DNA of 64,000 nt from Sulfolobales archaeon (GTDB taxonomy: Archaea; Thermoproteota; Thermoprotei_A; Sulfolobales; AG1), in contig JAWBYA010000003.1 in the NCBI GenBank assembly GCA_038867615.1, positions 205,034-269,033 on the forward strand, written 5' to 3'. Both the position numbers and the translations under genes were made by a program. Below are positions 12,651 through 64,000 of this stretch, piece by piece (positions within the stretch are counted from its first letter, which is position 1; every line of letters starts with the position of its first letter). The notes below the pieces were generated by a model. That model was not told the origin of the DNA, searched no databases, and saw only the letters and a program-made list of their open reading frames with translations.

Positions 12651-12707
12651 CTAATCCGCATATCATGGTTATAACCCCTTACTCGTAATATAGATTGCGT
12701 GGGTAGT

Positions 12708-14096: not shown

Positions 14097-14099
14097 TGA

Positions 14100-14201
14100 G
14101 CCGCCGTAGCTCAGCCGGCAGAGCGCCGGGCTCATACGGCTTTATAGACCGGGGTCGCCTGAGAAACCCGGAGGTCGCGGGTTCGAATCCCGCCGGCGGC
14201 A
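14100..14201 (+). tRNA. Elongator tRNA-Met(CAT) with 29-nt intron at 37/38 (14137-14165)
   Basis: Acceptor stem GCCGCCG/CGGCGGC-A, anticodon arm CCGGG-CTCATA[intron]A-CCCGG, BHB helix CTCA/TGAG. Confidence 0.92.
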
Positions 14202-14202
14202 C

Positions 14203-14730: not shown

Positions 14731-14860
14731 CCAGATCCCGGTAGTAGGGCTTCACCAGTGTTACCATTTTAAATAATAACCCCCAACAGGCTATCTGTAT
14801 CATCGGCTCCATATTACCATAACGGCCTCTGGTCTATATGATCCCCGGGCTCTGGGGTCT

Positions 14861-16093: not shown

Positions 16094-16278
16094 ATTATTA
16101 GTGTTAGTTGGGCCTGATAAAAATAACGATGATAATCATTAATTATAGCGGCTCAAACCACCGATAATGTGTTATTCTTTACCTTATACTCATATCCTTG
16201 CCGAGATCCGATGGCCTGGCTATTAGGCTTCTTAGCATACTAACTAGTAGGTAAGAGAGTATAGAGAGATACCCGATA

Positions 16279-16578
16279 TTGATACCACAGTTAGTGAGGA
16301 TATGCGTGAAGGCGGCTCTAGAGCCTGGAGTGGTTTCTAGAGAGATAGAGGATCTAGGGATCAGATTGGATAGTGAGGTGAGGAGAGGTATTGTGAGGGC
16401 TCTAGAGGAGATTGCAAGCACACTGGTGTCTAGGAAAGGTCCCTCGCTTTATTGTAGGCTGTGTCGCAAGGGTCCCTATACTAAGAGGGGTGCGTATCTC
16501 CATCTACTCAGAATCCACTCTGATGATATTGTGAATATTGTTAGGGAGGAGTTTGATAGAGTTATAGGCCAGCTATAG
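16279..16578 (+). CDS. Small C2H2 zinc-finger protein
   Basis: CRLCRKGPYTKRGAYLHLLRIH. Confidence 0.75.
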   Translation: MIPQLVRICVKAALEPGVVSREIEDLGIRLDSEVRRGIVRALEEIASTLVSRKGPSLYCRLCRKGPYTKRGAYLHLLRIHSDDIVNIVREEFDRVIGQL

Positions 16579-19092: not shown

Positions 19093-19097
19093 ATTCG

Positions 19098-20336: not shown

Positions 20337-20388
20337 CTATGCTTGTAACCCCTCTACACTACTACCCTCTGCTCTCTATATATTTTAT

Positions 20389-21351
20389 TCAGCATTCGAG
20401 ATCCATTTCCTGTGAGCATATGGATGCAATGCTAGAGATCCTCTTAGAGATCTCCATCGGATCCTTACCACCTATGTATGTTATCGGCTCAACCCCGATT
20501 CCTCCAAGATCTATAACTGCATCAACGCCCCGCTCTACAAAGGCATTGCTAACATCAGCTACTATTGTGTCCTCATCTACATAGCCTCTTCGAGCCTGGA
20601 TCACTTCGTACTTGAGCCCGAGCTTCTTGAGCGCATCTATAACACACTTGATGGCTTTGATGTTTGCTATTGCTCTAAGATCTCTTCTCCTCCTAGCTAT
20701 ATTAAGCAGTATTTTTCCCAGATGCCTACTAGCCCCCCATGTGGGTTTTGACACAGTAGCTATAGATCTTCCCACTTTCGTTATCCTCCCAGGAAATGCT
20801 GCTATATCGTTGAGAGATATCGCACCTTCTTTTGCATATGCTATGTTCATAAGCACCTCTGGGATTAGTATGTACACACACTTCTCTCGGGATAGATATT
20901 CATAGGCGTTCTCGAGAGCCTTGAGGACATTCACGCCGGAAGGTATCTGTATTATTTCTGAGCATATCCTGCAATCAGGCGGTATGCTTGGATCAAGCTT
21001 TCTATGGGCCTCGCATAGCCTTAGCTCTGATAACCACCTAAGTATTTGCTCGGTGAGTATGCTGAGGGCATCAACCTTCCTATCCTCCTTAACCAGTGCA
21101 AGGATCCTCTCTACCAGTGAGTGGAACTCGGCACCATTAATACCTGCCGCAGAGATCTTCGCCAGGATCTTTTCCTCTGAATATGCAGGGCTTCTAATAT
21201 ATATGTTAACAGTAGGCTGTGTAACCCCAAGGATCTTTGCTATCTGCATCTGGGTATAACCCTCACTCCACAGCCTTCTAGCCAGTGCAGCCTTAACAGG
21301 TGTCGATATGTATTCCTCAACCACATCGAATGGTAGTCTCAATCTCCTCAA
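20389..21351 (-). CDS. HTH plus ThiN-domain protein (ThiR-like thiamine regulator)
   Basis: N-terminal HTH TQMQIAKILGVTQPTV; ThiN-type motifs IPEVLMNIAY, AAFPGRI and WGASRH. Confidence 0.8.
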   Translation of the reverse strand: MRRLRLPFDVVEEYISTPVKAALARRLWSEGYTQMQIAKILGVTQPTVNIYIRSPAYSEEKILAKISAAGINGAEFHSLVERILALVKEDRKVDALSILTEQILRWLSELRLCEAHRKLDPSIPPDCRICSEIIQIPSGVNVLKALENAYEYLSREKCVYILIPEVLMNIAYAKEGAISLNDIAAFPGRITKVGRSIATVSKPTWGASRHLGKILLNIARRRRDLRAIANIKAIKCVIDALKKLGLKYEVIQARRGYVDEDTIVADVSNAFVERGVDAVIDLGGIGVEPITYIGGKDPMEISKRISSIASICSQEMDLEC

Positions 21352-21618
21352 ACATATTATTGCTAGTCTATTTTTATCCCTATAGAGTGGTTATTATTAT
21401 GTATTAACATGCGAATCCGCATTATGTTAGCGTTGACGCGGTCCGTGGTTTTCGACAGTTTAGACAAGCCAGTAGGGCTTAGAAGATCTCCAAGAATATT
21501 ACCTTAGTTCTCACCAACATGGCGAAACCCATGATTGTTTGTATAAGCTGTGTAGATTGTAACGCACGGCTTATCTTTATATCGCTTTAAAGGGAAGATC
21601 TATTGTTGGGAGGGTATT

Positions 21619-22770
21619 GTGGAGGGGATAGCAGACCTACCGTTACACAGCGGTGCTGTGCCGAGATGGCTTTATGAGTATATGGAGAGGCTTGGGCGTG
21701 CGATAATAGAGGTTCTTATCGAGGAGTATGGCCCTAGCGAGGTGGTTAGGAGGTTCTCAGACCCTCTCTGGTTCCAGGCATTCAATAATGCTATCGGTAT
21801 GGATTGGGATAGTAGTGGCTCTACCACGGTTGTTCTCAGGATTCTCAAGAATATTAGCTGGAATAAAGATCTAGGTTTTCTTGTTCTCGGGGGTAAGGGT
21901 GCTGAGTCGAGAAGAATTCCTGAGGAGAGCACCATAGCTGTTGAGAAGCTAGGCCTTGGCGAGGATCAGGGCTCTGTGATTAGGAGGGTTAGCTATATCG
22001 GTGCTAAGATCGATAGTGTTTTGTTACAAGACGGTCACCAGATCTATATACACGGGATCATGGTTTCTGAGGATGGTTTATGGACTATAATCCAGCAGGG
22101 TATGAACATAGAGAGGGGGTATGCTAGGAGGTATCATCTCTCAAGCGATACCTTCAGGGATCTTCCATGGAATCCCCATAGCGGTTTAGCATCTAACCAG
22201 ATCCTAAAGCCCCTCAATCTAACAGATAACGGCTCTATGGATACTGTGAAGCTGATTGAGGATCTCTTCTCACAGAGCGTGTCAAAAATAATAAGCGACA
22301 TAGCTTTGGCAGACGCGTGTATAAGGGGTAAAAGAACACTTATAGGCAACCCCTGTAGGGGTTCTAGGAGAGAGTTCACCATAGGCTACTATAAACCTGT
22401 GAGCATTAATGCAGGGCTCATAGAGGCTATAAACAGGGCTCAGCTGGAAGGAGCTAGAAGAATAGTCGATATACTCGGTGCGAGGGGCTTTGGTCCAGAA
22501 GCGATGAGGGCTCTGGTGTTGGTGGCTGATTTGATATATGGCTATACACCTTCTAATAAAGATCCTGTGAGCCACCCGATGGATCCTTTCAAATACTCAT
22601 ACGCTCACGGCGGGAAAGACGGGGTTCCATATAGGGTGAGAAGGGATTTGCTTGAGAGAACCATAGTAACTCTTGAAGAGGCTGTTGAGAGGGCGAGGCT
22701 TGGTAGGAAGGAGGCTATGGAGAGTCTTAAAAGGCTTGCAAGGTTCTCCTCAATGATCCTGGATGGATAG
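21619..22770 (+). CDS. DUF763 domain protein
   Basis: ADLPLH, SDPLWFQAF, GMDWDSSG, QQGMN and YAHGGKDGVP motifs. Confidence 0.88.
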   Translation: MEGIADLPLHSGAVPRWLYEYMERLGRAIIEVLIEEYGPSEVVRRFSDPLWFQAFNNAIGMDWDSSGSTTVVLRILKNISWNKDLGFLVLGGKGAESRRIPEESTIAVEKLGLGEDQGSVIRRVSYIGAKIDSVLLQDGHQIYIHGIMVSEDGLWTIIQQGMNIERGYARRYHLSSDTFRDLPWNPHSGLASNQILKPLNLTDNGSMDTVKLIEDLFSQSVSKIISDIALADACIRGKRTLIGNPCRGSRREFTIGYYKPVSINAGLIEAINRAQLEGARRIVDILGARGFGPEAMRALVLVADLIYGYTPSNKDPVSHPMDPFKYSYAHGGKDGVPYRVRRDLLERTIVTLEEAVERARLGRKEAMESLKRLARFSSMILDG

Positions 22771-22823
22771 CTTTACCGCTTATTACCCGCCTCAACCATG
22801 CTTATCGTTGGAGGCGGTAGGGA

Positions 22824-23663
22824 ATAGAGGTTTATGTCGAGGTACTTCTACTCTTCCTAACAGGCTTTCTTGGAGGGCTTATAGGCGCCTTAACAGGGCT
22901 TGGCGGTAGCGCCATAGCTACGCCAATCCTTGTGAGCTATCTAGGCATCCCTCTCAGGGTAGCGATAGGGTCAGGAATAATAACCACAATAGCTAATAGT
23001 AGCACTAGCGGTGCAGGCTACCTAGCCAAGGGTATTGCTAACCTGAGGGTTGGGTATTCACTAGCTATAGCAACTATCCTCGGATCCATAGTTGGGGTTA
23101 TAATAAACATAAACATTCCAACAAAGATCCTCTATATAGTGTTCGGCGTTGTTCTAGCCATAGCACCGCTACCCGGCATTATATCTCGCAAGGATCAGAT
23201 TTTCGTCGTTAGACATACCAATCAGGATCCAATATCTATGAAGCTGGGCCTTAGGGGTAGCTATTACGATGAGAACAAGAAAGCCCGTATTGAATATGTA
23301 GGGTCTAGGTATCCCCTATCTTTCCTATCAATGATGGGTGCAGGGATCATCTCAGGCCTCCTCGGGATAGGTGCTGGCGCCTTCAAAGTCCTATCAATGG
23401 ACTATGTTATGGGGCTTCCATTCAAGGTATCAACAGCAACAAGCTCGTTCATGATAGGGTTAACAGCAACATCCGGCGGTATACAGTACCTAATACTCGG
23501 TTATGCTGACCCACTTCTAGTATCCCTACTAGTCCCTGGGGTCATACTAGGCTCATACGTATCATCAAGGATCCTTAACAAGCTTGCGAGCAAGACCCTT
23601 AGGTATATATTTACGGTCGTTGTATGGCTGCTGGCTATAGAGATGATATGGAGGGGTTTATAG
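22824..23663 (+). CDS. Sulfite exporter TauE/SafE (TSUP) family transporter; probable ATA start
   Basis: The frame is open 36 codons upstream of GTG 22932 and encodes the family N-terminal motif GFLGGLIGALTGLGG. An in-frame TAG lies at 22818-22820. ATA 22824 follows GGAGG. SGLLGIGAG and ATSSFMIG occur in the second half. Confidence 0.85.
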   Translation: MEVYVEVLLLFLTGFLGGLIGALTGLGGSAIATPILVSYLGIPLRVAIGSGIITTIANSSTSGAGYLAKGIANLRVGYSLAIATILGSIVGVIININIPTKILYIVFGVVLAIAPLPGIISRKDQIFVVRHTNQDPISMKLGLRGSYYDENKKARIEYVGSRYPLSFLSMMGAGIISGLLGIGAGAFKVLSMDYVMGLPFKVSTATSSFMIGLTATSGGIQYLILGYADPLLVSLLVPGVILGSYVSSRILNKLASKTLRYIFTVVVWLLAIEMIWRGL

Positions 23664-24044
23664 ATGGGAAGCCCCGGCTTGGCTGAGCGTACTGTGTATA
23701 GCATCTTAAAACTTTCTGTGTTAGCCTCGCTAGTAGTTATAGCAGTAGGTATTGTATGGATGTTTTACCATCTACACATTCAGGGCTTTCCGACAGATAA
23801 GTGGCTCACCTTTAATGGTACACGTATAAGTGACTTTGCACACATGATCTCTAGAATGGATCCTCGGGGGATTCTAGGGCTTTCAGCAGTTATCCTGATA
23901 CTAGGCGTGGTTCTAGCTATAGTCTCGGTGCTCATAACCTCTCTAAGAACGAGAGATAACAGTCTAGCGATCGTTTCAGCAGTACTTCTAATACTCATAC
24001 TGATCTCGACATCGATAGGTCTGATAATAAAGTCTAGAGGCTAA
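23664..24044 (+). CDS. DUF1634-like membrane protein (usual TauE partner)
   Basis: Three hydrophobic helices; abuts the TauE stop codon. Confidence 0.7.
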   Translation: MGSPGLAERTVYSILKLSVLASLVVIAVGIVWMFYHLHIQGFPTDKWLTFNGTRISDFAHMISRMDPRGILGLSAVILILGVVLAIVSVLITSLRTRDNSLAIVSAVLLILILISTSIGLIIKSRG

Positions 24045-24163
24045 CTTGCTCTTACGGATCGTTTTCTACAGATATTTCTGGAAAGCTTTAGAGATCTATT
24101 GGCTTAACTTCTATAGCAGGTGGTTTTAGTGTTTTTATCACATAGCAATACAATATTTCCCTA

Positions 24164-24544
24164 TCATCTCCTAGATATAGCGGTTCTCGAGGTTTTCATT
24201 GATATATAGCCTGTGATCGCGATCACGATAACCAGCATAACGCCAAGGACCATGTGGATGTCCGAAACGATTATTGAAGGGGAGAAATATATGTGCATTC
24301 CTAGGGCTACCTGAGAAAGTGTTAGCAGCAACGCTATGAGTGAGAATATCTTGAGGAGAGGGGATCCTTGAGATCTTATTGAGCTATAGGTTAGAAAGAC
24401 TATGAGGATCAGACCAACGATCCCGATCGTTGCGTGGAGATCCCTAAGGTAGTAGAGACCATAAAAAACCATAGCGAGACCCAATATATACTGTACAATA
24501 ACACCCACACCAACCAGGAGGCTGATCAGCCCAACAAGCCTCAT
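24164..24544 (-). CDS. Four-helix membrane protein of unknown function
   Basis: Four TM segments with repeated Q..LG and H..G motifs (QYILG..LHATIG; QVALG..IHMVLG). Confidence 0.7.
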   Translation of the reverse strand: MRLVGLISLLVGVGVIVQYILGLAMVFYGLYYLRDLHATIGIVGLILIVFLTYSSIRSQGSPLLKIFSLIALLLTLSQVALGMHIYFSPSIIVSDIHMVLGVMLVIVIAITGYISMKTSRTAISRR

Positions 24545-24619
24545 GGTATATACCAGAATGTAATAGTTGTAAAGGATAAAAACCCAAATGACAATAATAT
24601 ATATATGGCGGGGCAGTGC

Positions 24620-24696
24620 AGCGGGGTAGGGCAGCCAGGTAGCCCGCGGGGCTCATAACCCCGAGGTCGGTGGTTCAAATCCACCCCCCGCTACCA
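24620..24696 (+). tRNA. Initiator tRNA-Met(CAT), CCA encoded
   Basis: A1-T72 pair (AGCGGGG/CCCCGCT-ACCA), consecutive G-C pairs in the anticodon stem, CTCATAA loop. Confidence 0.96.
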
Positions 24697-24778
24697 ATAA
24701 ACCCCCGCCGCCAATGGTAGAAAACCTGGTTGCTTCCAAACAATTATAAATAATCCTCTTCTTCTAGATGGTTTGTAG

Positions 24779-25039
24779 GTGTTGCTCTTGGATCTCAGAG
24801 AGGCTCAGGATCTTATAGCAAAGCTATACCTTCAAAGGGATAGAGGGAGGGGCGTTTTCGCTACATTTACATGGTTTGTTGAGGAGGTGGGGGAACTTGC
24901 TGAGGCTATACTAGGAGGTGATAAAGACTCGATGGAAGAGGAAATAGCCGATGTGCTTGCATGGCTCCTCTCTATAGCTAATCTTGTTGATGTTGATGTT
25001 GAGAAGGCTTTCAAGAAAAAATATGTTAAAGGTAACTAG
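24779..25039 (+). CDS. MazG-like nucleotide pyrophosphohydrolase
   Basis: EEVGELAEA and EEIADVLAW motifs. Confidence 0.88.
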   Translation: MLLLDLREAQDLIAKLYLQRDRGRGVFATFTWFVEEVGELAEAILGGDKDSMEEEIADVLAWLLSIANLVDVDVEKAFKKKYVKGN

Positions 25040-25228
25040 AATTGCTTCTTTTCTAATAATATCTAGAGAATGTTGACAATATATAGGACGATCATGCCAC
25101 GTATTCCTGGATGTTGATGGGCTTGGTAGTTGTCCATAAGCAACAGGATCCATGGGTCTCCTGCTAGGTGGAAGCTTCCTGGTATGAGGGAAGAACAAAA
25201 ATATCAACAAGCATCCAATGATAAACAA

Positions 25229-26263
25229 CTAGTAGAAGCCTGGTGGTTTTACTCTAAGTACCTCTTTGTTAACTAATGTCGGAGGCTCTCTCCCAGCTGC
25301 GAATGCTAGTAGGTTCTCTACAGCTAGGAGGGCCATTGCGAGTCTTGTCTCTCTAGTTGCAGAGCCTATATGAGGTGTGAGCACCACGTTCTTGAACCTG
25401 GTTAGGGGGTGGTTTGGGTTGAGGGGTTCCTCCTCATAGACATCTAAACCAGCACCGGCTATCCAGCCTTTCTCTAGTGCTTCTATGAGTGCTTCTGTAT
25501 CTATTACAGCCCCTCTGGAGGTGTTTATAACTATAGCTCCTCTCTTTACCTTATTTAGCCTCTCTCTATTAATCATATGCCTGGTCTCTTTTGTTAGGGG
25601 GACATGTATTGAGATTATATCGCTGTTTGAGAGAAGATCATCGAGATCTCTATACTCGGCTCCAAGCTCTTTCTCCAAGTTCTCAGGAAGTCTTCTCCTA
25701 CTATAGTAGATGATCTTCATGTTAAAGGCTTTCGCTCTTCTGGCAACAGCAATACCTATACGCCCCATTCCTATTATACCTAAGGTCTTTCCATATAGCT
25801 CCATGCCAAGCATCATTTTGGGATGAAATGGGGTTCCTGTTCTCCACCATTCACCCCATCTAACGAAATGGTCTCCCTCGACGATTCTTCTAGCAGTAGC
25901 TAGTATGAGGGCTAGTGCTAGATCTGCTGTAGCTTCTGTAAGCACTCCTGGTGTGTTGGTTACATATATACCATGCTGGGTTGCGCACTCTACATCTATA
26001 TTATCATAGCCAACAGCCATGTTGGCTATGATCCTTATCTTGTGAGAAATACTTCTAATCATATCGCAATCAAATCTATCGATAGGCATGCTGAGCACGG
26101 CGTCGAATTCTGCAAGCTTTTTCCTCAGAAACTCGTAAGGCGGGTGCTGGTATCTATCCCAGACTTCATAATCATATACGCCCTCAAGCTTCTTGAGAGC
26201 TTCATCAAAGATCTCTCTGGTTATGTAGAGCCGAGGCTTTGACGAACCAGAACTCTTATTCAT
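25229..26263 (-). CDS. gyaR: Glyoxylate reductase / D-2-hydroxyacid dehydrogenase
   Basis: AVGYDNID, NTPGVLT, GMGRIG, NTSRG, LDVYEEEP and PHIGSAT motifs. Confidence 0.88.
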   Translation of the reverse strand: MNKSSGSSKPRLYITREIFDEALKKLEGVYDYEVWDRYQHPPYEFLRKKLAEFDAVLSMPIDRFDCDMIRSISHKIRIIANMAVGYDNIDVECATQHGIYVTNTPGVLTEATADLALALILATARRIVEGDHFVRWGEWWRTGTPFHPKMMLGMELYGKTLGIIGMGRIGIAVARRAKAFNMKIIYYSRRRLPENLEKELGAEYRDLDDLLSNSDIISIHVPLTKETRHMINRERLNKVKRGAIVINTSRGAVIDTEALIEALEKGWIAGAGLDVYEEEPLNPNHPLTRFKNVVLTPHIGSATRETRLAMALLAVENLLAFAAGREPPTLVNKEVLRVKPPGFY

Positions 26264-40727: not shown

Positions 40728-41438
40728 TTAGCTTGTCCTGGTCAGGGATCTGTATTGCTTAACTATCTCAATACCGGATGAGCTGCCGATAATGTCTGCT
40801 CCAGCGATCCTCATTAGAGCGAGATCCCATATAGTTCTTATACCCCCAGCAGCTTTTACACCAGTTTTGCTACCCTTTAGAGTGTTTTTCATAATAATAA
40901 CATCCTCCACACTAGCCCCTCTGGGACCAAAACCCGTGGATGTTTTCACATAGCTAGCACCCGCTTTTGCAACAAGCCTACTAGCGAGCTCTATCTTCTC
41001 TCTAGAGAGATAGCCCGTCTCTATTATTATTTTACTTCCAAGACCCAGTTCTCTCGCTCTGTCAACTATTGCTGTAACCTCTCTCTCAAATTCACTCCAT
41101 AAACCCTCAACTATAAATCCTATGTCAGCCACAACATCAACTTCCCTAGCTCCTTTTGATGCTGCATACTCTATCTCCCTCAGCTTTAACTCAAGCCCTA
41201 TATTCCCGTGGGGGAAGGCAATTACTGTGGCTATAGGTGTTCTGCTTATCTGTGCCACTAGGGATAGCCTGTTAAGGGGTACTACCAATGCTCTGAACCC
41301 GTACTGATCGCTCTCGCTGGCAAACTTCTCATAGGCCTTTGGACCGGCATCTGGTCGTAGGAGTGTCTGGTCTATTAGTGGTGCTGGGTTCCCCATCGTC
41401 TCTATTATCCTCACAAGATCCAGGCTCAATCTATCCAA
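40728..41438 (-). CDS. deoC: Deoxyribose-phosphate aldolase
   Basis: IDQTLLRP, GAREVDVV, KIIIET, VKTSTGF and KAAGGIR motifs. Confidence 0.93.
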   Translation of the reverse strand: MDRLSLDLVRIIETMGNPAPLIDQTLLRPDAGPKAYEKFASESDQYGFRALVVPLNRLSLVAQISRTPIATVIAFPHGNIGLELKLREIEYAASKGAREVDVVADIGFIVEGLWSEFEREVTAIVDRARELGLGSKIIIETGYLSREKIELASRLVAKAGASYVKTSTGFGPRGASVEDVIIMKNTLKGSKTGVKAAGGIRTIWDLALMRIAGADIIGSSSGIEIVKQYRSLTRTS

Positions 41439-54957: not shown

Positions 54958-55317
54958 ATGCTTAGCAGTCTTAGAGAGCTTGTGTGGAGATCCACGTGGG
55001 ATAGCGAGTGTTTCAATGCACTGAGAGAAATGTGTATCAGGTCATGTGGGGAAGACTATCCACATCCCCCACTCTTTAAGGATCTACCAGATAGCCTGCC
55101 ACATAGATTCTCAGCAATACTCTCCATGGTTTCCGAGGCGATGATCTGTGGACTTAGGGAGGGTACTAAGGAGCTTGGGGATTATCTAGAGAAGCTTAGG
55201 GAGGAGTTTCTCAAACTATACTCAGATCTATTGCTTGAGGAGAGGGAGTATGGGTTGAGATTGAGACCCCACAGGATCGAGGATCTATTGAGGATCTTGG
55301 CAGAGAAGCAGGGATAG
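54958..55317 (+). CDS. Hypothetical protein
   Basis: 119-aa ORF with ATG start, divergent from the Fe-S pair; no motif recognised. Confidence 0.6.
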   Translation: MLSSLRELVWRSTWDSECFNALREMCIRSCGEDYPHPPLFKDLPDSLPHRFSAILSMVSEAMICGLREGTKELGDYLEKLREEFLKLYSDLLLEEREYGLRLRPHRIEDLLRILAEKQG

Positions 55318-55359
55318 GCTTATAATAGGCCTTGTTATATAGAGCTATTGGGTAGTAAA

Positions 55360-55869
55360 ATGCCGCTTAGACCGGCTAGATGCTATACACAGCAAAAGAA
55401 GCCGGCATATACTAGGAAGGAGTATATTCAGGGAGTACCCCCGCCAAAAATAACTAAATATACTATGGGTAACCCTAAGGGTGAGTATAAATATGCTGTG
55501 AAGCTTATAGCAACAACTAGGTGTGTGATAAGGCACAACGCATTAGAGGCTGCACGAATAGCAGCCCATAGATATCTATCGGCAGCAGTTGGTGAGGATA
55601 ACTTCTTCTTAGTGGTTAAGAAATACCCGCACCACGTGCTCAGGGAGAATAAGATGCTCGCCTTTGCTGGAGCTGACAGGCTCCAAGACGGTATGAGACT
55701 AGCTTTTGGAAAACCAATCGGTACTGCGGCTATTGCGATGCCTGGCGATGACGTTATGGTTGTCTATGTTAGTAATGAGAAGCATATAGAAGCTGCTAAG
55801 GAAGCCCTGATTAGGGCTGAGACAAAGCTCCCCGAGGCATATAGAGTAGAGGTAGTTAAGCTAAATTGA
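55360..55869 (+). CDS. rpl10e: 50S ribosomal protein L10e (uL16)
   Basis: [24 protein letters not shown] and [16 protein letters not shown] motifs. Confidence 0.97.
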
Positions 55870-55880
55870 TCGAGATCTTT

Positions 55881-55935
55881 CTGTGATGAAGCCGACATAG
55901 GTTGATTGATGATATAGGGTCGATTATCTGATCAG
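55881..55935 (+). ncRNA. Box C/D methylation guide sRNA
   Basis: Box C GTGATGA, guide AGCCGACATAGG, D' TTGA, C' TGATGA, guide TATAGGGTCGATTAT, D CTGA; short CTG/CAG terminal stem; just downstream of rpl10e. Confidence 0.8.
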
Positions 55936-56183
55936 TCATAAGTTATTCAACAACTCGTTCGTCACCCCAACTCTTCTATAGATCGACACTGCGGATCCTA
56001 GATCGTAGCTGGTGCAACGATGTGAGACTCCTATCTACAAAGGGATCATCATACTAGTGGTTTAGCGTTCGCTCCCAGCCTACCCAAAGCTAATAAGACC
56101 AACGCATTACTAATCAAATATATGAGTATTAATAAGAAAACAACCCGGCGTGATACCCGATCTCAATAGCTGCGGCTTTAGTG

Positions 56184-56900
56184 TTACTTCTGATCCTTTT
56201 CAGCATATATGAGAAGTCTTCTGAGAAGAAGTATTAGGTATGAGAGCTCCATTTTTGTGGGATTTGATCTATACACTATTCTCTCAAGACTCTTTATAGC
56301 AGAGATCTTCTGTCTCTCATCATTCATCGTTAGCTCGGAAGCCATTTCTATATACTTCATGGCTATTCTGAAATCCTCCTGCGAGGGGCGTTCAACTATA
56401 TCGATAGAGGTCCTGCTGGAGAACTTCCTAAAGATCTCGTAAAGTACTATAGCCACAGCATGAGATAGGTTCAGCGTTGGATATACATGGCTTGCACCTA
56501 TGTGGAGATATATGTTGCACTTCTCAAGCTCGCTTCTAGTTAGCCCTGTGCTTTCTCTGCCAAACACTATTGAGACGAGCCCTTTACCTTCTATCATATC
56601 CACAAAATCCTTTAGCTCTACAGGCTGTCTAAGCGGGTCGCTCTTCTCTGTAACTATTGAGGATGTGCATGCAGCTATATCAGAGCCTTCTAAGGCTTTT
56701 TCAAGATCATCGACTATGATGGCCTTTTCAAGATATTCCCTCCCCCCAGCTGCGAAGTTAATAGCATCACTGTTTATCTCAGCCTTTGGTTTGACTAGAT
56801 ATAGCTCGTCTACCTCGAAGTTTTTACAGAGACGAGCCACCATCCCGAGGTTTATTGATCCCTCAGTACCTACTAGTATAACTCTTATACGGGGTTTGAT
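56184..56900 (-). CDS. trmJ: TrmJ/SPOUT tRNA 2'-O-methyltransferase; probable non-canonical start (ATC 56900)
   Basis: FGRESTGL and YPTLNLSHAV motifs. Conserved motif I (IRVILVGTEGSINLGMVAR) begins upstream of the first ATG at 56843 and is bounded by an in-frame TGA. Confidence 0.88.
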   Translation of the reverse strand: MKPRIRVILVGTEGSINLGMVARLCKNFEVDELYLVKPKAEINSDAINFAAGGREYLEKAIIVDDLEKALEGSDIAACTSSIVTEKSDPLRQPVELKDFVDMIEGKGLVSIVFGRESTGLTRSELEKCNIYLHIGASHVYPTLNLSHAVAIVLYEIFRKFSSRTSIDIVERPSQEDFRIAMKYIEMASELTMNDERQKISAIKSLERIVYRSNPTKMELSYLILLLRRLLIYAEKDQK

Positions 56901-56902
56901 CT

Positions 56903-58252
56903 CTACTCAGCCTCTATATCGGCTCTTTTAACCCCTCTTAGGAGTGGAAGTCTTCTCCTCTTAGCCTCTCTAAGGATCCTCTGCAGGTTCTCATAATAGC
57001 TTAGAAGCTCTTTCACCTCCTCAACGCTTGTTCCCGAGCCTATGGCTATTCTCCTTATCCTGCTCTTATCAAGGATCTTCGGGTTCTGGAGTTCCTCGTA
57101 GGTCATGGAGTCCATTATATTTATCCATTTCCTCATTTTCTTCTCACTGATCTTAGCCTCCTCATCACCTATCACCAACCCCGATAATCCCGGGATCATC
57201 TGAAGGATCTTTGCTAAGGGACCCATTTTTAAAATACTCTTCAGCTGGACATACACGTCGATGAGAGTCATCCTGCCAGTAGCTATAGCGTTGCTCAGCC
57301 TCTTCTCAAGCTCCTTGCTCTCCTCAAGAGCCCTGAACTTCTCTATAATACCCTCTATATCTCCAAGCCCTAGTAGCCTACTTGTGAATCTCCTTGGATT
57401 GAATACCTCGATCTCGTCGATCTTCTCCCCAGTCCCTATAAACTTGATCATAGCACCTGTAGCTGCTACAGCCGATAAGGCTCCCCCTCCCCTAGCACTC
57501 CCATCAAGCTTTGTTATAACTATAGATCCTATTGGTACTGTTTCGTGGAACCTCTTGGCGAGATCATATGCTCTCTGACCTATAGTAGCGTCGAGCACTA
57601 GTATAACCTCGTCGGGTTTTATCACCTCGGCTATGCTTTTCATCTCGTCGAGCAAGGCCTGCTCAGATCCGTAGCCATGCCTCCCAGCCGTATCGACTAT
57701 GATTATATTGCACCCCTTCTTAATCATAGCCTCAACACCTCTCATCGCAATACCGACAGGATCCTGGGATCCTGGCTCACCATATACCGGTACGCCGATC
57801 ATTTCTCCAAGCTGTGCTAGCTGGTCATAGGCGCCCGGCCTATAAGTATCGGCAGCAACCATGCATGGCCTATACCCCTGCTTCTTATACAGATAAGAGA
57901 TCTTTGCACACGTGGTTGTCTTACCAGACCCCTGAACCCCGACCATAAGCACCACGTAGGGCTGTTTTGGTGGTATAATACTTGGCGATCTATCGCCTCC
58001 GAAGAGCTCGGCTAGGTTGTCGTAGACTATTTTTATGAACCAATCCCTCCTCGAGAAGCCTGGAGGGGGTTCCGAGGATCTAGCATGCTCCCTGATCTTA
58101 TTGCTAAGCTCGTAGACAAGCTTTACATTAACATCAGCCTGGATCAGTGTTTTCTGTAATTCCTTTATAAATGACTCAACAGCCTGCTCGTAAGGGTCTG
58201 AGCCTTTGACGAACCTAACAACAGCTTCCTTGATCCTTTCGAGACCCTTCAA
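56903..58252 (-). CDS. srp54: Signal recognition particle protein SRP54
   Basis: GVQGSGKTT, DTAGRH, TKLDG and M-domain SRIRRIAIGSG motifs. Confidence 0.97.
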   Translation of the reverse strand: MKGLERIKEAVVRFVKGSDPYEQAVESFIKELQKTLIQADVNVKLVYELSNKIREHARSSEPPPGFSRRDWFIKIVYDNLAELFGGDRSPSIIPPKQPYVVLMVGVQGSGKTTTCAKISYLYKKQGYRPCMVAADTYRPGAYDQLAQLGEMIGVPVYGEPGSQDPVGIAMRGVEAMIKKGCNIIIVDTAGRHGYGSEQALLDEMKSIAEVIKPDEVILVLDATIGQRAYDLAKRFHETVPIGSIVITKLDGSARGGGALSAVAATGAMIKFIGTGEKIDEIEVFNPRRFTSRLLGLGDIEGIIEKFRALEESKELEKRLSNAIATGRMTLIDVYVQLKSILKMGPLAKILQMIPGLSGLVIGDEEAKISEKKMRKWINIMDSMTYEELQNPKILDKSRIRRIAIGSGTSVEEVKELLSYYENLQRILREAKRRRLPLLRGVKRADIEAE

Positions 58253-58256
58253 ACAA

Positions 58257-58655
58257 CTATCCTCTCACGTTAACAACTATCCTCCTACCCATGATTACCC
58301 AGTACTCAACCTCTTTTCCAGGAGCTATTCTTTTGATAAGATCCTCGTTCTTAGGAGGCTCGGCCTCGAATGTCTCGAAGCTCTCCATATCCATTATCTG
58401 TATATTCTTCTCACTAACAGCTAGAACCTGCCCAACCCTCTTATCTATTATAGGCACCTCTACCCTTGTATCGACAGGTGCTACGAGGGTTTTCTTAACA
58501 CCACTTATTATAGATATGGCTACCACATGGGCCTTGGCAGAGCCGTGCTTCCCAGTCTTGGCCTTAGAGATCTCCACAACTCTGCATGGTTCTCCATCTA
58601 TTATTAGATAGCTACCAACCCTTAGATCTCCAAGCTCTGCGTACGTGACGCTCAA
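58257..58655 (-). CDS. eif5a: Translation factor aIF5A (eIF5A)
   Basis: Hypusine loop KTGKHGSAK. Confidence 0.97.
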
Positions 58656-58792
58656 TCCGAATCCCCAGATATGTGATCTCCTCAGACTTATATTAATAGC
58701 GTTTTCACACCCAATGGCTCTTTAACCCTATGTCTATAGGATCCACAAAGATCTTATATTCGGTGTAGCTAAGAATACCCCGGTGGGGTATT

Positions 58793-59176
58793 GTGGAGAA
58801 AAAAGCTGTTGAGAGTAAGGAGGCTCCTAAACCAGCAGGTCCCTATAGCCCCGGTATCATTGCGTCTGGAAGGATCTTATTCATATCGGGTCAGATCCCG
58901 ATAGATCCTTCGACGGGAGAGCTTGTTAGAGAGCCCTTTGCAAAAGCTGTGGAGATTGTGTTGAGAAACATTGGGGCTATTGTTAGAAGTGCTGGTGGTG
59001 ATCTAGAGAACATAGTCAAGGTTACAGCATATCTAACCGATATGTCAAAATTCCAGGAGTTCAACGAGGTTTACCAGAGATTCTTTAAACCACCATACCC
59101 AGCAAGAACCACTATCCAGGTTGCAGGGCTGCCTAGGAACTCCCCTATAGAGATCGAAGCCATAGCGATCCTCTAG
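58793..59176 (+). CDS. RidA/YjgF family enamine/imine deaminase
   Basis: GPYS, SGQIP, PYPART and IEIEAIA motifs. Confidence 0.93.
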   Translation: MEKKAVESKEAPKPAGPYSPGIIASGRILFISGQIPIDPSTGELVREPFAKAVEIVLRNIGAIVRSAGGDLENIVKVTAYLTDMSKFQEFNEVYQRFFKPPYPARTTIQVAGLPRNSPIEIEAIAIL

Positions 59177-59668
59177 GTGGATGTATTGGGGATCCTCTGG
59201 GCTCCGTGGAGGATGAGCTATATAAAAAGCGCTGATAGAATGCACGGGTGCTTTCTCTGCGAATCTATTGGGAAGAGGGATGAGGACACATATATAGTCT
59301 ATAGATCTGAGAAGGTTTTTGTTATCCTCAACTCATATCCATATAACACTGGGCATATAATGATAGCTCCCTATAGACATATAGCTGAGCTAGAGTCGCT
59401 TGACGATAAGGAAACAATAGATCTCATGAATACTATGAGGAAAAGTCTAAGAGTATTGAAAGATGTATATTCACCCCAGGGCTTCAACATAGGGATCAAC
59501 ATAGGTAGGGTAGCAGGGGCAGGGCTTGAGAGTCATTTACACGTGCACATAGTACCAAGATGGGGCGGTGACACAAACTTCATGCCAATAATAGGAGGAG
59601 ATAAGGTGCTCCCAGAAGACCTAACAACAACATGGAGAAAAATTAGCAATGCATTTAAGAAGAGCTAG
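59177..59668 (+). CDS. HIT family hydrolase (Ap4A phosphorylase/FHIT-like)
   Basis: LWAPWR, CFLC, YPYNTGH and HLHVHIVPRW motifs. Confidence 0.93.
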   Translation: MDVLGILWAPWRMSYIKSADRMHGCFLCESIGKRDEDTYIVYRSEKVFVILNSYPYNTGHIMIAPYRHIAELESLDDKETIDLMNTMRKSLRVLKDVYSPQGFNIGINIGRVAGAGLESHLHVHIVPRWGGDTNFMPIIGGDKVLPEDLTTTWRKISNAFKKS

Positions 59669-60098
59669 AGGTTTTGATCTAACTCCTCTACAGAGAGATT
59701 CCGCTTCGATTTATAGAGATCTATAAGAAGTTTTAGCTTTAGCACGCTCTTATACCATTGATTCTCAATCTTAATATTCATACCAATATAGCGAATTGAT
59801 TGTCGGTGTGTTACTGCCGAATTAAGCCTTGGATGTTTATGTTATGATCATTGTTATAATTCTGTTTTGTTAAAATCGAAAATGCTATGTTACTTGTATA
59901 TTTTCGCTTGGCTTTGCTAAGAGCAGCACGTACTTAAATTAATGAATAGATAAATGTCACCAAATAAGGACGTGATATTGATTTATATTTATATATTGTG
60001 TTGATTTTAGCAACACATATTTGATCATGTGCTTGTAGTGCATCATATGTCTTTTACTTATATTCTACGGAGCATTTATATATGTGGAGGTTCGAATT

Positions 60099-61274
60099 TT
60101 GACGAAAAAGATACTCATATTGGGTGGCGGGACAGGAGGTTTAATGGCTTCTAAAGAGCTTAGAGAGATTCTCGGAGATGAGGTCGAGATCACCGTTATT
60201 GATAGAAGAAAATACACAGATTTCAGGCCTTCTTACCTCTACGTTATGATGGGTTATAGGGAGCCCCACGAGATCTCAGCTCCTCTCGAGCTTCTCAACA
60301 AATTTGGTGTTAGGTTTGTTAACGATGAGGTTACTGCTATAGATGCTCCGAACAGGGTTGTTAGAACCAAGAGTGGGGCTAGCTATAAATATGACTATCT
60401 ACTCGTCTCGCTTGGTGCTGAGGTAAGAGAAGATCTGGTTCCTGGGGGTCCTTTCCCCCACCCGTGGGAGCTGAATAGTGCTCTTGAGACTAGAAAGGCT
60501 ATTATGGAGTTTAAGAAGGGGAAGATCGTTGTTGCTGTCCATAGCACGCCCTATAGATGCCCTCCAGCACCGTGGGAGACTGCTCTCCTGCTTGACTTCT
60601 ACTATAGCGGGCTTGGTAAGAGGGGCGAGGTTGATATAACTATGGTTCATCCTTTCAAGAGACCTTTCGAGAACTTCGGTCCTTTGGCAGCTAAGATGAT
60701 GGAGGGTATGATGGCTGAGAGGAAGATCGGTTGGGTTGGTGTTGGTAAGAACCCAGCGATCGAGAGTATAGATAGGAATTCGAAGACTATTGTTGCAAGT
60801 AATGGTGAGAAGATCAAGTATGATATGCTTATACTCATACCGCCTCATAAGCCGCCTAAGGCTGTTGCTGAGTCAGAGATCTCAGACCCCTCGACAGGCT
60901 GGGCTAAGCCGCAGCCACCAACTATGAGGACTAAGTATGATGATGTATATGCTGTGGGCGACGTGGCTGCTCCGAGCCTTAAGCTGGGTATGGCTGGGGT
61001 TATACTGCACTCATATATAAAATACCCTCTAGCATCGATAATTAGCGATATTAAGGGTAGCTATATATCCAAGGACTTCAGGGTGTTTGGATCCTGTGTA
61101 TTAGATGTAGGAGGCTTTGGCATGGCTGCTGCCTGTGACTTCACAGACCTAGTGCTTGGCAAGGCTGCCTATCCAAACTGCATGTTCCTCCCACCAACGA
61201 GCTTCTCAAGGGTCTTTAAGGAGATGTTCGAGAAACAATACTTCTCATGGTTATTATCCTATGTTCCCAGGTGA
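60099..61274 (+). CDS. FAD-dependent oxidoreductase, sulfide:quinone oxidoreductase/FCSD-like
   Basis: ILGGGTGG, YDYLLVSLG, YRCPPAPWE, LIPPH and YAVGD motifs. TTG 60099 follows GGAGG. Confidence 0.85.
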   Translation: MTKKILILGGGTGGLMASKELREILGDEVEITVIDRRKYTDFRPSYLYVMMGYREPHEISAPLELLNKFGVRFVNDEVTAIDAPNRVVRTKSGASYKYDYLLVSLGAEVREDLVPGGPFPHPWELNSALETRKAIMEFKKGKIVVAVHSTPYRCPPAPWETALLLDFYYSGLGKRGEVDITMVHPFKRPFENFGPLAAKMMEGMMAERKIGWVGVGKNPAIESIDRNSKTIVASNGEKIKYDMLILIPPHKPPKAVAESEISDPSTGWAKPQPPTMRTKYDDVYAVGDVAAPSLKLGMAGVILHSYIKYPLASIISDIKGSYISKDFRVFGSCVLDVGGFGMAAACDFTDLVLGKAAYPNCMFLPPTSFSRVFKEMFEKQYFSWLLSYVPR

Positions 61275-61696
61275 TGAGCATGTCCCAGCCCCAGGTTGAG
61301 CAAATAAGCATAGAAGATCTAGCACGAGAGGTTAGAGAGCTACGCAAAATAGTCGAAGATCTTGTGGTCAAGCTAACACCACTAGCAGTGATCCTAGAGA
61401 AACTACCAGACCTAATGACAGACCCAATGCTATTCAAAAGCGTAGCACCAGCCCTAGCAATCCCATACGCACTAGAAAGAGCCAATGTTAACATGATGGG
61501 GGCAGCAATGGTTGGAGGGATCGAGTGCCTAAGCAGATCTCTAGAGAACATAGCATCAAAGGATCAAATACCAGAACTATCGATCATGAAGCTACTAACA
61601 GACAAAGAACTAAAAAGATCCCTAGGAATGCTCATGGAGCTACTCAAAACAACAATGCCATGCATCCATAAGAATCTAAGAGAAATGCAAGCCTAG
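61274..61696 (+). CDS. DUF1641-like protein
   Basis: C-terminal LSIMKLLTDKELKRSLG pattern; start overlaps the stop of the SQR-like gene. Confidence 0.65.
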   Translation: MSMSQPQVEQISIEDLAREVRELRKIVEDLVVKLTPLAVILEKLPDLMTDPMLFKSVAPALAIPYALERANVNMMGAAMVGGIECLSRSLENIASKDQIPELSIMKLLTDKELKRSLGMLMELLKTTMPCIHKNLREMQA

Positions 61697-62173
61697 AGAA
61701 GACTAATTAGCTATATAACATCATACTCTTTTTTCCACTTTTACTAGCACTTATGGAAAGGATCCTATGTGTGGTCGTAACGGTTCAGCTTTTGTTGATG
61801 ATATCTTATATCGACTACCCGTTCTCTTGGTTTCATTTACCTCAGGGCTCCTTTAATGGGGATTCCTATCGTTGATCTTCATCGGTTCAATGTGATTCCG
61901 ACCCGCAGTTTCTCTTCATAGCTAGCCTCTGACTTATCGCTGTAGGGAACCCTGCACTGTGGCTCTTTTCCTTTAACTTACTGCTTGAGTCTTTGTGAAA
62001 TATATCGTGGTCTGATATACATGCCAACCTGCTTCAGCTTATAATCACGTGCTCTCAATAGAGCTATGGATTCAATATCAATCCACTATGAGATCCTAAC
62101 AGACAGCCATGACGGGATCATCGCTATTGAATGTAACTACGGTAGAGATCATTATGGGTTTGGTATTTGCCAG

Positions 62174-62217
62174 TGCGGCGGCCGGGATTTGAACCCGGGA
62201 TTTCCGGCTCGGAAGGC
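62174..62217 (-). repeat. 3' fragment of tRNA-Gly(TCC), 44 bp; probable att site
   Basis: Minus strand reads GCCTTCCGAGCCGGAAATCCCGGGTTCAAATCCCGGCCGCCGCA: anticodon loop, T-arm and 3' acceptor strand. No D-arm or 5' acceptor strand upstream. Confidence 0.85.
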
Positions 62218-62410
62218 TTGTATCTGGTGTGGGGATCCTTCCGATCGATCTTCATGGTTGGAAGGTTATGTGAGGCTTTCGATGTATGTCTATGTGAATC
62301 TGTTTGTGATCTGCTTGGGTTGGGAGGATTCTCAACATATATCTCTCCACACCATAGATTTTGGTTCTTGGAGCCCTATATTTATCTTTACAACTAAAAA
62401 CCTCGTTTTT

Positions 62411-62803
62411 TTACCCTTGATCTGCTATCTCGATTAGAACCCTAACCCTTGTCCTCGTTCTATGTAGGGCTTTCCAGAGGTGGTTGTGGGATGGTGGTAG
62501 GGCTATGATGCATCTAGCCCTACCCTTCTCAGTCCTTCCCGAGATTGCTATCCTTATATCTCCTAGGTATATCGTGTTGCTCATAAGGCTTGCCGATGCC
62601 CCCAGCTCCCTCACAAGCCCATATAGATCCTCCCTATCTATCTCTAGATAGCCCCTGAGCCTCCTACCCCTCAGCGATAGCCACAGACCATCCATCCTCG
62701 ATGGGAGGAGAACCACATACCTCTCAAAACCCCACAGAGAAACCCTCCTAACACCAGCATCAACAACCCTACTCACAGAGAAACCCAGCATATCGGAACC
62801 CAT
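62411..62803 (-). CDS. Small basic protein with two internal repeats, possibly AbrB-like swapped-hairpin DNA-binding
   Basis: RYVVLLPSRMDGLWLSLRGRRLRGYLEI aligns with RCIIALPPSHNHLWKALHRTRTRVRVLIEI. ATG 62803 follows GGTGGGGG. Confidence 0.6.
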   Translation of the reverse strand: MGSDMLGFSVSRVVDAGVRRVSLWGFERYVVLLPSRMDGLWLSLRGRRLRGYLEIDREDLYGLVRELGASASLMSNTIYLGDIRIAISGRTEKGRARCIIALPPSHNHLWKALHRTRTRVRVLIEIADQG

Positions 62804-62838
62804 TTCCCCCACCACAAGATATGTTGAAAAATAATTCT

Positions 62839-63999
62839 CTATCTGCTGGACTGCAGGCTTGCTATTGGTATTACAAGGATCCTCATCGAGGCGAAAAGCT
62901 CGACATAGTGCCAAGCGTTTGTGCTTGCAGCGTTTCTCAATGTTATATCGCTTGATAGTGTGATATATGCCTGCCCGAGGCTGAGGCTCCCACTATATGT
63001 CTCTATATCACCCTGTGCAAGCGATATCGGCGATAGCGGTACCTGCCCCTGCCTGAAGTCGCTATATGATATAGATATTGGACTGTTATCCCTCCTACCG
63101 TTTATAATTACATATGAGTCTATGATGCCCACCTGGATCCTGCCTCCTCCATAGAGGGTTGGCTGGGTTGGGAGCTTTGGGAGGGATACCTCGTAGTATG
63201 CTGTGCCAGCTATGAGGGGTGTTGAGGATGAGATCCTCAGCCATATATCCCTCGAAAGCGCCCTGGGATCCCACTTCGTGTTGATCCACAGCTTTACAGA
63301 GACATTCAGGATCATCTCAGCCTGCCCGTTCTGAAGAGGATATATCCTGTAGCTAATGTTGGAGCCTGCATCGGAGATAGAGAGAACCCTATCACATGCC
63401 GTAGCACCCCAGCTATATCCAGCACAGCCATACCTAGTTTCCTGAGCCACGAGCCTGCTATAGCCATCATAGACGGTAGCGGAATGCCATGTTTCATAGC
63501 ATCCGCCATATCCACACCCACCGTATGGATGTGCTATTGTGTACCAAGCTATTCTGGGAACTACCCAGTAGTACCAGTACTGCCAAATATACGCTGTCTG
63601 ATATACAGGTATTATATCTCCTGTAACGACTAGACGTGAGTATCCGCTCTGAGAACTGTATATAGTGTTCTGCCTCATATCGCCTTGTCCATATTCAGCA
63701 CCCCTCACAAGGGCTATTGAGAGATCCTGATATGGATAGCTATATGAGACCCCCGAGAGAACATCATTGTAATATCCATAGTAGTAGTTTGTACAGAAAT
63801 AATCCCTATACTCAGAGCTAACAGGGCTATACGAGGGATGACCAACAAAATACCACCATGAGGATGGAGCATATGACCAGCAGTACCAACAGCCATAGCA
63901 TTGATTATTCCACCACCAGCAGCAGGAAATGTAATACCAGCTGCAGCAGTACCACCAGCAGTAGGATCCGTAGAGCCGGTCGCTTGGTGTGTATCCTTC
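62839..63999 (-). CDS. C-terminal part (at least 386 aa) of a large Cys/Trp/Tyr-rich protein; 5' end outside the window
   Basis: The frame of ORF 62839..63708 stays open to the window edge: EGYTPSDRLYGSYCWWYCCSWYYISCCWWWNNQCYGCWYCWSYAPSSWWYF... Confidence 0.75.
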   Translation of the reverse strand, partial: EGYTPSDRLYGSYCWWYCCSWYYISCCWWWNNQCYGCWYCWSYAPSSWWYFVGHPSYSPVSSEYRDYFCTNYYYGYYNDVLSGVSYSYPYQDLSIALVRGAEYGQGDMRQNTIYSSQSGYSRLVVTGDIIPVYQTAYIWQYWYYWVVPRIAWYTIAHPYGGCGYGGCYETWHSATVYDGYSRLVAQETRYGCAGYSWGATACDRVLSISDAGSNISYRIYPLQNGQAEMILNVSVKLWINTKWDPRALSRDIWLRISSSTPLIAGTAYYEVSLPKLPTQPTLYGGGRIQVGIIDSYVIINGRRDNSPISISYSDFRQGQVPLSPISLAQGDIETYSGSLSLGQAYITLSSDITLRNAASTNAWHYVELFASMRILVIPIASLQSSR

Positions 64000-64000
64000 C

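Follow-up and report, generated by a model that had tools for sequence, protein, structure and literature searches.

The window, a stretch of 64,000 nucleotides from the genome of a Sulfolobales archaeon, ends within a gene whose product includes a stretch composed largely of cysteine, tryptophan and tyrosine residues (C/W/Y). This stretch is a genuine coding part of a protein of approximately 600 amino acids, and the protein belongs to an orphan family that is confined to one genus. The gene is carried by an element that is integrated at a tRNA-Gly(TCC) gene. Within the C/W/Y stretch lies a module of eight cysteines. We tentatively read it as a knob, knotted by disulfides, that helps to set the specificity of an adhesin-like protein for cell contact, in the service of the element.

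The window corresponds to positions 205034 to 269033 of contig C3 in the source genome (G000:C3:205034-269033). Contigs C8, C10, C14 and C16 also belong to the source genome, and G059 and G069 are relatives of the same genus. Related loci carry L numbers. Among the proteins, P0002 is the window translation, P0001 the C16 paralog and P0003 the C16 protein. The gene and its principal parts are found at the following positions of the window.

62839 to 63999, minus strand: the family gene, comprising its last 386 codons and the stop codon; it is truncated at the 5' end by the end of the contig, and the full protein has approximately 604 amino acids, as judged by orthologs.
63871 to 63963, minus strand: the C/W/Y stretch, residues 13 to 43 of the 386-residue translation, with the eight-cysteine core at 63880 to 63960.
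63763 to 63798, minus strand: the FCTNYYYGYYND motif, near-invariant in the family (invariant columns Y64 to D79) and close to a recombination breakpoint.
63541 to 63591, minus strand: the conserved aromatic strand YIWQYWYYWVVPRIAWY, with invariant T135, Y137, W139, W142, Y144, W145, V146 and Y153.
63496 to 63525, minus strand: YGGCGYGGCY, with two invariant cysteines, C162 and C167.

The 31 codons at 63871-63963 encode YCWWYCCSWYYISCCWWWNNQCYGCWYCWSY, in which 23 of 31 residues are C, W or Y (8 C, 8 W and 7 Y). An earlier note on this DNA had quoted this peptide and further aromatic blocks, and translation of the minus strand recovers all of them. In a scan of all 3,817 stop-to-stop open reading frames (ORFs) of at least 100 amino acids in the 2.22-Mb genome, a C/W/Y density of 23/31 is the maximum. 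The runners-up in the same scan reach 17/31 and are two in number, the C16 paralog and one ORF of 108 amino acids. Against the background of 6.35% for C, W and Y combined, the binomial tail for 23/31 is 1.4e-21, and it is 2.8e-10 even at the window protein's own C/W/Y content of 20.8%.

The ORF runs off the window because contig C3, which is 269,033 bases long, stops at window base 64000, and this is a matter of assembly, not biology. Approximately 218 N-terminal residues are absent from the window gene and are present in orthologs of 604 to 646 amino acids. A tblastn search with the first 260 residues of the paralog gave no match to the missing N-terminal part on other contigs of the assembly. 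The earlier note had extended the frame upstream of position 63708, and this extension is borne out by the orthologous DNAs, in which the C/W/Y frame is open and conserved in all four (window, L006, L007 and L008). The full-length paralog also aligns over the entire 386-residue frame, including the Cys-rich stretch, with 43% identity (BLASTP E 3e-94). The window ORF has no start codon, and a second open frame, rich in G, A and T residues, overlaps the gene at 63714-63998, so a reader might suspect a wrong frame or a dead gene and dismiss the C/W/Y reading as an artefact. However, the competing frame picks up an internal stop in L008, whereas the C/W/Y frame stays open in orthologs and paralog, and the truncation of the gene coincides with the contig end. 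The wrong-frame or dead-gene reading is refuted, and we consider its remaining chance negligible. Two other hot-spring metagenomes contain contigs that match 62400-64000 except at four positions (63551 and 63610-63612), all of them outside the C/W/Y block, and both contigs extend beyond base 64000. Public contigs that extend beyond this base have lengths of 6,589 and 3,630 nucleotides.

Half or more of the sampled words of 62400-64000 are found in 12 hot-spring metagenome runs, and at least seven studies contributed these. The run X10 left 63642-63911 uncovered. One contig from an RNA library, a hot-spring metatranscriptome, is 1,867 nucleotides long; it covers 62730-64000, and with it almost the entire gene, and extends 595 nucleotides further. 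It has 85 differences and represents a variant allele that is 93% identical. This contig is a weak hint that the gene is transcribed.

The family is very small. Its full-length paralog on contig C16 comprises 643 amino acids from the first ATG, or 607 as called in the database, and the metagenome orthologs of 604 and 646 amino acids are 92% and 84% identical to the window part. A word-indexed family search of 5.8 billion proteins yielded 8 matches among 7,997 scored candidates, and a search with a ten-member profile yielded 9 matches among 7,999 candidates; neither search reached distant relatives. A phmmer search of 1.84 billion representatives gave two matches. Two family members are named in their source 'hypothetical protein [Sulfolobales archaeon]'. 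Among 301 genomes sampled from the order, the family gene is present in three, namely the source genome and two of the five others of the genus. It is found in none of the eight genomes of other genera of the taxonomic family and in none of the 287 genomes of 12 other families.

The note had known of no family with such a composition, and the profile collections agree with it. Pfam returned no families at E up to 1 for P0001 and P0002, the known Cys-rich mini-domains granulin, hydrophobin, knottin and TSP1 included; NCBIfam returned none at E up to 0.01 for P0010, and PHROGs none for the family protein. A PDB sequence profile gave nothing below E 0.1, the ESM Atlas held no usable match for the family protein, and there were no matches to it in IMG/VR, a phage collection or a plasmid collection. 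Literature searches revealed no description of the family, and none of pilus-bearing integrative elements in Sulfolobales-type archaea, which is weak evidence of absence.

The module is bounded by the landmarks TREIT and FCTNYY, between which exactly eight cysteines occur in 12 of 12 sequences (some of the 12 are duplicates). It is 27 to 31 residues long, with a cysteine spacing of C-x2-3-CC-x5-7-CC-x6-8-C-x2-C-x0-2-C, and the cysteine positions are invariant or nearly so in family alignments. Some members contain a second C/W-rich insert with 6 or 12 cysteines before the last strand. This insert is absent from the window, P0009, L006 and P0006. Cysteine counts are always even, with 8 in the module, 0, 6 or 12 in the optional insert and 6 elsewhere, and even counts fit disulfide pairing better than four-Cys metal sites. 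The constancy of the eight cysteines and the even counts lend indirect support to the disulfide-stapled loops that the note had envisaged. Eight cysteines, including two adjacent pairs, within approximately 30 residues presumably resemble the frameworks of granulin, hydrophobin and knottin, but the spacing differs from theirs and there is no Pfam match at E up to 1. We know of no counterpart to the Trp/Tyr filling among small disulfide-rich modules.

Eight invariant cysteines, with a C-x2-C-x2-C run in seven of nine distinct module versions, might also form a metal site or an iron-sulfur cluster. However, C-x2-CC replaces the run in the other two versions, and no conserved His or Asp accompanies the cysteines. 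Moreover, the six cysteines of an optional insert cannot be divided into sets of four, the module is predicted to lie outside the cell, and Pfam has no family for it. A metal or iron-sulfur cluster is thus improbable.

The positions between the cysteines behave differently from the cysteines themselves, in that the non-Cys positions of the module are approximately three to seven times more variable than the remaining protein. In three ortholog pairs, amino-acid differences occur at 8/23, 14/23 and 12/23 non-Cys module positions, compared with 36/355, 46/355 and 62/355 positions in the rest (Fisher p 0.0023, 4e-7 and 3e-4, for pairs that are not independent of one another). The ratio of nonsynonymous to synonymous change (pN/pS) at the non-Cys module positions, which amount to only 23 codons, is 0.62, 1.58 and 1.11, versus 0.21, 0.30 and 0.34 in the rest of the gene. 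For the whole block, the ratio is 0.28 between the window and L006. The module as a whole is under purifying selection, and its non-Cys positions are relaxed or diversifying. The note had expected the C/W/Y blocks to vary and their flanks to be conserved. This holds for the first block, as the counts above attest, and fails for the other two, since the FCTNYYYGYYND and Y.W..W.YWV blocks rank with the best-conserved segments of the family.

Across nine distinct module versions, C, W and Y together number 10 to 23 per 29-33 residues, with the highest count in the window, and one version contains only two W and no Y. The near-pure Trp/Tyr filling is specific to the lineage of the window. Several Trp positions beside Cys pairs are retained across clades.

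The main rival explanation is that the module is a structural staple only, that is, a disulfide-rich linker that stiffens a surface protein, in which Trp and Tyr accumulate as a neutral mutational by-product and bind nothing. The codons lend themselves to this explanation. Within the block, 23 of 31 codons have the form T-purine-N, and the only sense codons of this form are those for Cys, Trp and Tyr, which makes these residues one-step mutational neighbours. The drift of aromatic content between close alleles, from 10 to 23 C/W/Y, also argues for a by-product. So does a slippage repeat in the second C/W insert of the C16 paralog, where a 9-nucleotide unit, TGGTGCTGG, occurs three times over; the insert itself is present in some members and absent from others. 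Tandem Repeats Finder detects no repeats in the block of the window, and triplet slippage, which the note had suggested, is visible only in the second insert of the paralog. In opposition to the staple explanation, non-Cys pN/pS exceeds 1 in two of the three ortholog pairs, which goes beyond simple relaxation but concerns only 23 codons, and several Trp next to Cys pairs are retained across clades. We regard a purely structural role as possible, though on the unlikely side.

The aromatic filling could also act on lipids. Under this explanation, the module is a membrane-active loop whose interfacial aromatics insert in the membrane of a partner and, when DNA is transferred, help the cells to bridge or fuse. 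For the 31 residues, interfacial hydrophobicity sums to approximately -22 kcal/mol, which is consistent with such a loop, as is the carriage of the gene by a mobile element. However, the corresponding sums for other alleles range from -13 to +2, and no match to fusion-protein folds was obtained with models that are poor. A membrane-active loop is rather improbable, and perhaps a shade less so than a metal site.

The alleles of the gene are recombination mosaics between element variants, and not the product of a hot spot between identical flanks. P0003 and P0006 are 100% identical over the first approximately 280 alignment columns and approximately 50% identical thereafter, and the comparison of P0003 with the L005 protein shows the reverse arrangement. 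In both comparisons, the switch in identity lies near the FCTNYYYGYYND motif. At the DNA level, C16 and G059:C19, which come from different species of the genus, have no mismatches over the first 720 nucleotides of the gene (L003 1316-2035). From the first residue of the Cys module onward, the two sequences diverge, with 6-37 mismatches in every 60 nucleotides. Such identity followed by abrupt divergence points to a recent inter-species exchange of element segments.

The note had also raised targeted diversification, in which the block is a hypervariable cassette that is altered by a diversity-generating retroelement or a similar directed mechanism. The block is indeed locally more variable than its flanks, as this mechanism would predict. 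However, RVT_1 (PF00078) has no match in the source genome, which is 94% complete (3 of 14 control genomes matched), and 61500-64000 contains no template or second copy of the segment, but only short internal codon-run repeats. Also, the block is unchanged in the two metagenome contigs, which are independent and depart from the window sequence at other positions, with the proviso that runs were compared as contigs, which drop rare variants. Finally, C16 and G059:C19 differ by one recombination breakpoint, with divergence through the remaining gene. The targeted-cassette reading is largely refuted, and we give it a very slight chance. Variation would arise by ordinary routes, with point changes among neighbouring TGY, TGG and TAY codons, slippage at short repeats and homologous recombination that swaps gene halves, and with no dedicated mutator.

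Full-length family members share a basic N-terminus that is followed by a hydrophobic stretch, for which the best 19-residue Kyte-Doolittle window has a mean of 2.3-2.6 in seven of seven cases. An AlphaFold2 model of the full-length protein, based on a ten-row alignment, comprises a helix at residues 12-51, an immunoglobulin (Ig)-like sandwich at 58-146 with a block-mean predicted local distance difference test score (pLDDT) of 54-73, a middle region at 196-424 with pLDDT below 50, and a beta-rich C-terminal domain with scores that are mostly 55-87. The last of these corresponds to one further feature of the window.

62842 to 63393, minus strand: the C-terminal beta-rich domain, residues 203-386, which is the only moderately confident part of the window-fragment model.

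The AlphaFold2 model of the window fragment agrees with the full-length run, with pLDDT mostly 57-89 from approximately residue 211 and a dip to 45 at 241-250. Mean pLDDT in the two runs is 46 and 49, with shallow alignments of 10 and 9 rows. The YIWQYWYYWVVPRIAWY strand is modelled by AlphaFold2 as a long beta hairpin, at pLDDT below 50. Foldseek gave no match in the PDB at E up to 1e-3, and VIA-align returned generic Ig-like or sandwich rows only, in which Z peaks at 7.4 (residues 58-146) and 6.8 (C-terminal domain). Rows from BFVD were discarded, as their template-modelling (TM) scores do not exceed 0.15, apart from a few that reach 0.25 on normalisation by the length of short targets. In the predicted layout of the protein, a positively charged N-terminus leads into one hydrophobic helix and then an Ig-like domain; the middle, which is modelled poorly, separates these from the beta-rich domain at the C-terminus. 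The N-terminal helix and this order of domains suggest that the bulk of the protein lies outside the cell.

The neighbourhood of the family gene is conserved. Seven loci have at least 8 kb of upstream sequence (C16, L005, L006, L008, L009, L010 and G059:C19, among which L005 and L009 are near-duplicates). In all seven, the family gene stands back to back with a divergent gene for a protein of 402-451 amino acids, which also starts with a hydrophobic helix. Next in order, again in seven of seven, are a small gene resembling winged helix-turn-helix (wHTH) genes, four pilin-like genes and a helicase-like gene. In C16 (L003), a run of N at approximately 7330-7345 splits the helicase-like gene into ORFs 6644-7393 and 7302-7865, and the intact helicase-like protein has 421-447 amino acids in L008 and G059:C19. 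A class-III-type signal motif is present in six of eight small neighbouring proteins. The family protein itself has no match to pilin or archaellin profiles (Pfam at E up to 1; NCBIfam at E up to 0.01, P0010).

A membrane protein of approximately 800-830 amino acids, for which the best model is UpsF (E 1.7e-17 and 3e-20), is encoded in five of the seven loci, in the paralogous clade. The clade to which the window belongs, represented by L006 and L008, does not show it in the available sequence. G059:C19 encodes a T2SSE-type ATPase (E 3.4e-24), approximately 17 kb from the family gene and on this one contig only, and L008 contains two Prim-Pol genes and a P4-type primase. PHROGs matches to 26 element proteins are restricted to primases, polymerases and helicases, with no virion hallmarks. 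With these replication-type matches, and no matches to the family protein in the virus, phage and plasmid collections named above, the virion role that the note had entertained has no support. A role at the cell surface or in mating contact, in line with the mating-pair adhesin of the note, would fit the conserved pilin-like neighbourhood.

A related cluster without the family gene occupies 123-9954 of L004, on contig C14. It encodes an UpsF-like protein of 829 amino acids that is 58% identical to its C16 counterpart, a 542-residue AAA ATPase (PF00004, E 3e-17), a DnaJ-type zinc-finger protein, pilin-like ORFs and a protein of 1,342 amino acids with hydrophobic segments at its N- and C-termini. 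On G059:C19 (L028 and L029), which does have the family gene, the interval 11940-26067 encodes DUF2153, Prim-Pol and T2SSE ATPase proteins, a family B DNA polymerase (838 amino acids) and a DEAD/Hel308-like helicase (708 amino acids).

Two features downstream of the family gene lie at the end of the integrated element in the window.

62173 to 62218, minus strand: an attachment-site (att) fragment, which is the 46-nucleotide 3' part of tRNA-Gly(TCC), is identical to the 3' part of the intact tRNA and marks the element end.
62411 to 62803, minus strand: a small conserved ORF of 130 amino acids just downstream of the family gene, with 92% nucleotide identity to L008 11261-11758.

The intact tRNA-Gly(TCC) is on contig C8 at c[4071-4149]. 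Beside it lies an integrase gene (C8 2638-4005, minus strand, 455 amino acids) that matches PF16795, archaeal phage integrase, with E 6.2e-21, and this is the only recombinase seen. ARAGORN, with introns allowed, finds no whole tRNA at 61900-62500. Rfam gives nothing at gathering score in 55000-64000, and its sole E-value match, 62175-62210, represents the att fragment's tRNA-like T-arm. An empty site is found in a relative, where contig G069:C28 contiguously carries the host genes of the window, one intact tRNA-Gly(TCC) and the host genes of C8, with 90-91% identity to window 60085-61760 and 92% identity to the C8 host genes. In the source genome, the element sits between C8:4071 and window 62218. 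Its last genes are the family gene and the conserved 130-residue ORF, for which there are no Pfam or PHROG families, and the middle of the element is absent from the assembly. The att fragment, the integrase and the empty site confirm the note's view that the gene belongs to a mobile element.

In L005, a 46-nucleotide sequence at 11703-11748 is 93% identical to the att fragment and lies approximately 500 nucleotides downstream of the family gene. It adjoins host-type genes (cytidine deaminase, TldD and TatD), which places the family gene at the edge of the element there as well. Between the host genes and the att fragment of the window, 61793-61993 contains a dispersed repeat of approximately 130-190 nucleotides, found in approximately 20 other places in the genome and in many in the genus at 67-85% identity. 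This repeat may be an element similar to miniature inverted-repeat transposable elements. The 41-kb contig C10 has the same 36-nucleotide tRNA-Gly 3' sequence at both ends (C10:77-112 and 41182-41217), and its right-hand copy extends into what appears to be additional sequence of that tRNA gene; an intact tRNA-Gly(GCC) is at C1 c[488110-488188]. This contig may represent another element, either integrated or circular, with a tRNA-Gly gene as its site.

In the reading that we prefer, tentatively, the eight cysteines would pair as four disulfides and hold a small rigid knob, while the positions between them would be free to change. The knob would form part of a specificity surface, so that recognition of a partner or of a surface is possible. 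In the lineage of the window, the near-pure Trp/Tyr filling would give the knob a very sticky face that stacks on sugars or surfaces. We infer the four disulfides, the extracellular location and the adhesin role alike from the features described above.

Several observations weigh against an adhesin-like contact protein with such a knob. The module and the entire middle region have pLDDT below 50 in both models, so the knob receives no structural support from them. Pfam, the PDB profile, Foldseek and VIA-align connect no part of the protein, by fold or by profile, with known domains of adhesins or of carbohydrate binding. The family as a whole does not conserve the aromatic richness, and stickiness, if it is the function, is not family-wide. 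A prepilin-type cleavage motif (the FlaFind pattern [KRDE][GA][ALIFQMVED][ILMVTAS] directly before the hydrophobic stretch) is found in none of seven full-length family members, compared with six of eight small neighbouring proteins. Because the family protein has no such motif, its incorporation in a pilus appears doubtful. Neither a platform gene nor an ATPase gene is in the available L006 and L008 sequence, which represents the clade of the window, and the rest of the window's element is not assembled in the source genome. Also, the RNA-library contig is the lone evidence of expression and could be DNA carry-over.

A broader and more speculative proposal is that these are archaeal integrative elements with their own type-IV-pilus-like genes and a mosaic contact protein whose knob chooses the partner, as an archaeal counterpart of the thin pilus and PilV. 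Under this proposal, elements of hot-spring Thermoproteota would be transferred with the help of pili, by a route not described before, and the knob would be a new disulfide-rich Trp/Tyr binding fold. We consider this proposal unlikely, though worth stating. According to a published account, the I-complex plasmids R64 and TP114 use PilV as the minor-pilin adhesin of thin type IV pili; its N-terminal part is constant, and exchange of its distal part alters recipient specificity (PMC9045228). As in the PilV systems, pilus-type genes and a large protein are borne by the element, and here the alleles are mosaics with sharp breakpoints and the neighbours are pilin-like. In contrast to PilV, the family protein has no sequence or fold similarity to it, occurs in an archaeal host and lacks the prepilin motif. 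Neither shufflon cassettes nor cassette-like inverted repeats were found, in a repeat search of 61500-64000 that was not aimed at inversion or sfx sites as such. PilV is the best functional analogy, and membership in the PilV or Ups families is not claimed.

Ups pili of Sulfolobales provide species-specific cell recognition through pilin regions and surface-layer (S-layer) glycans, according to another account (PMC7064770). Of the Ups components (UpsA and UpsB pilins, UpsE ATPase and UpsF platform), the platform-like protein in our loci best matches UpsF, and the small neighbours match UpsA weakly (E approximately 3e-3). However, at 63-73 bits the UpsF matches fall well short of the cut-off of 400 and indicate the same superfamily only. 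The genes here are borne by an element, whereas Ups genes are chromosomal, and Ups systems are not known to include a large partner protein rich in Cys. For the platform-like protein, BasF of the bindosome assembly system of Saccharolobus ranks second (E 7e-8 and 1.7e-10), at 31-40 bits, far below the cut-off of 1300; the family protein has no match to a solute-binding domain. Through the bindosome system, large binding proteins that bear pilin-type signals come to lie in the envelope. The large type IVb minor pilins TcpB and CofB likewise have a long helix at the N-terminus and beta-rich domains at the C-terminus. The C-terminal domain aligns with TcpB at Z 5.0 (93 residues aligned, root-mean-square deviation 3.7) and with CofB at Z 4.5 (101 aligned, 3.3), but these values are within the noise band of the tool, and generic sandwiches score higher, up to Z 6.8.

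Should the module be no more than a structural staple, what remains is an orphan surface protein carried by an integrated element, both of them well delimited. If the preferred reading is true, the family would be a new one with a new small disulfide-rich aromatic module. Eight cysteines and up to fifteen Trp and Tyr residues within 31 residues, from a high-temperature organism, may also be of interest for protein engineering. Under the preferred reading, there would also be a first hint that hot-spring archaea harbour integrative elements equipped with a pilus-type contact apparatus of their own, along with a rapidly exchanging specificity protein. Such a finding would bear on how archaeal elements find new hosts, a question that has so far been answered mainly for bacterial plasmids.

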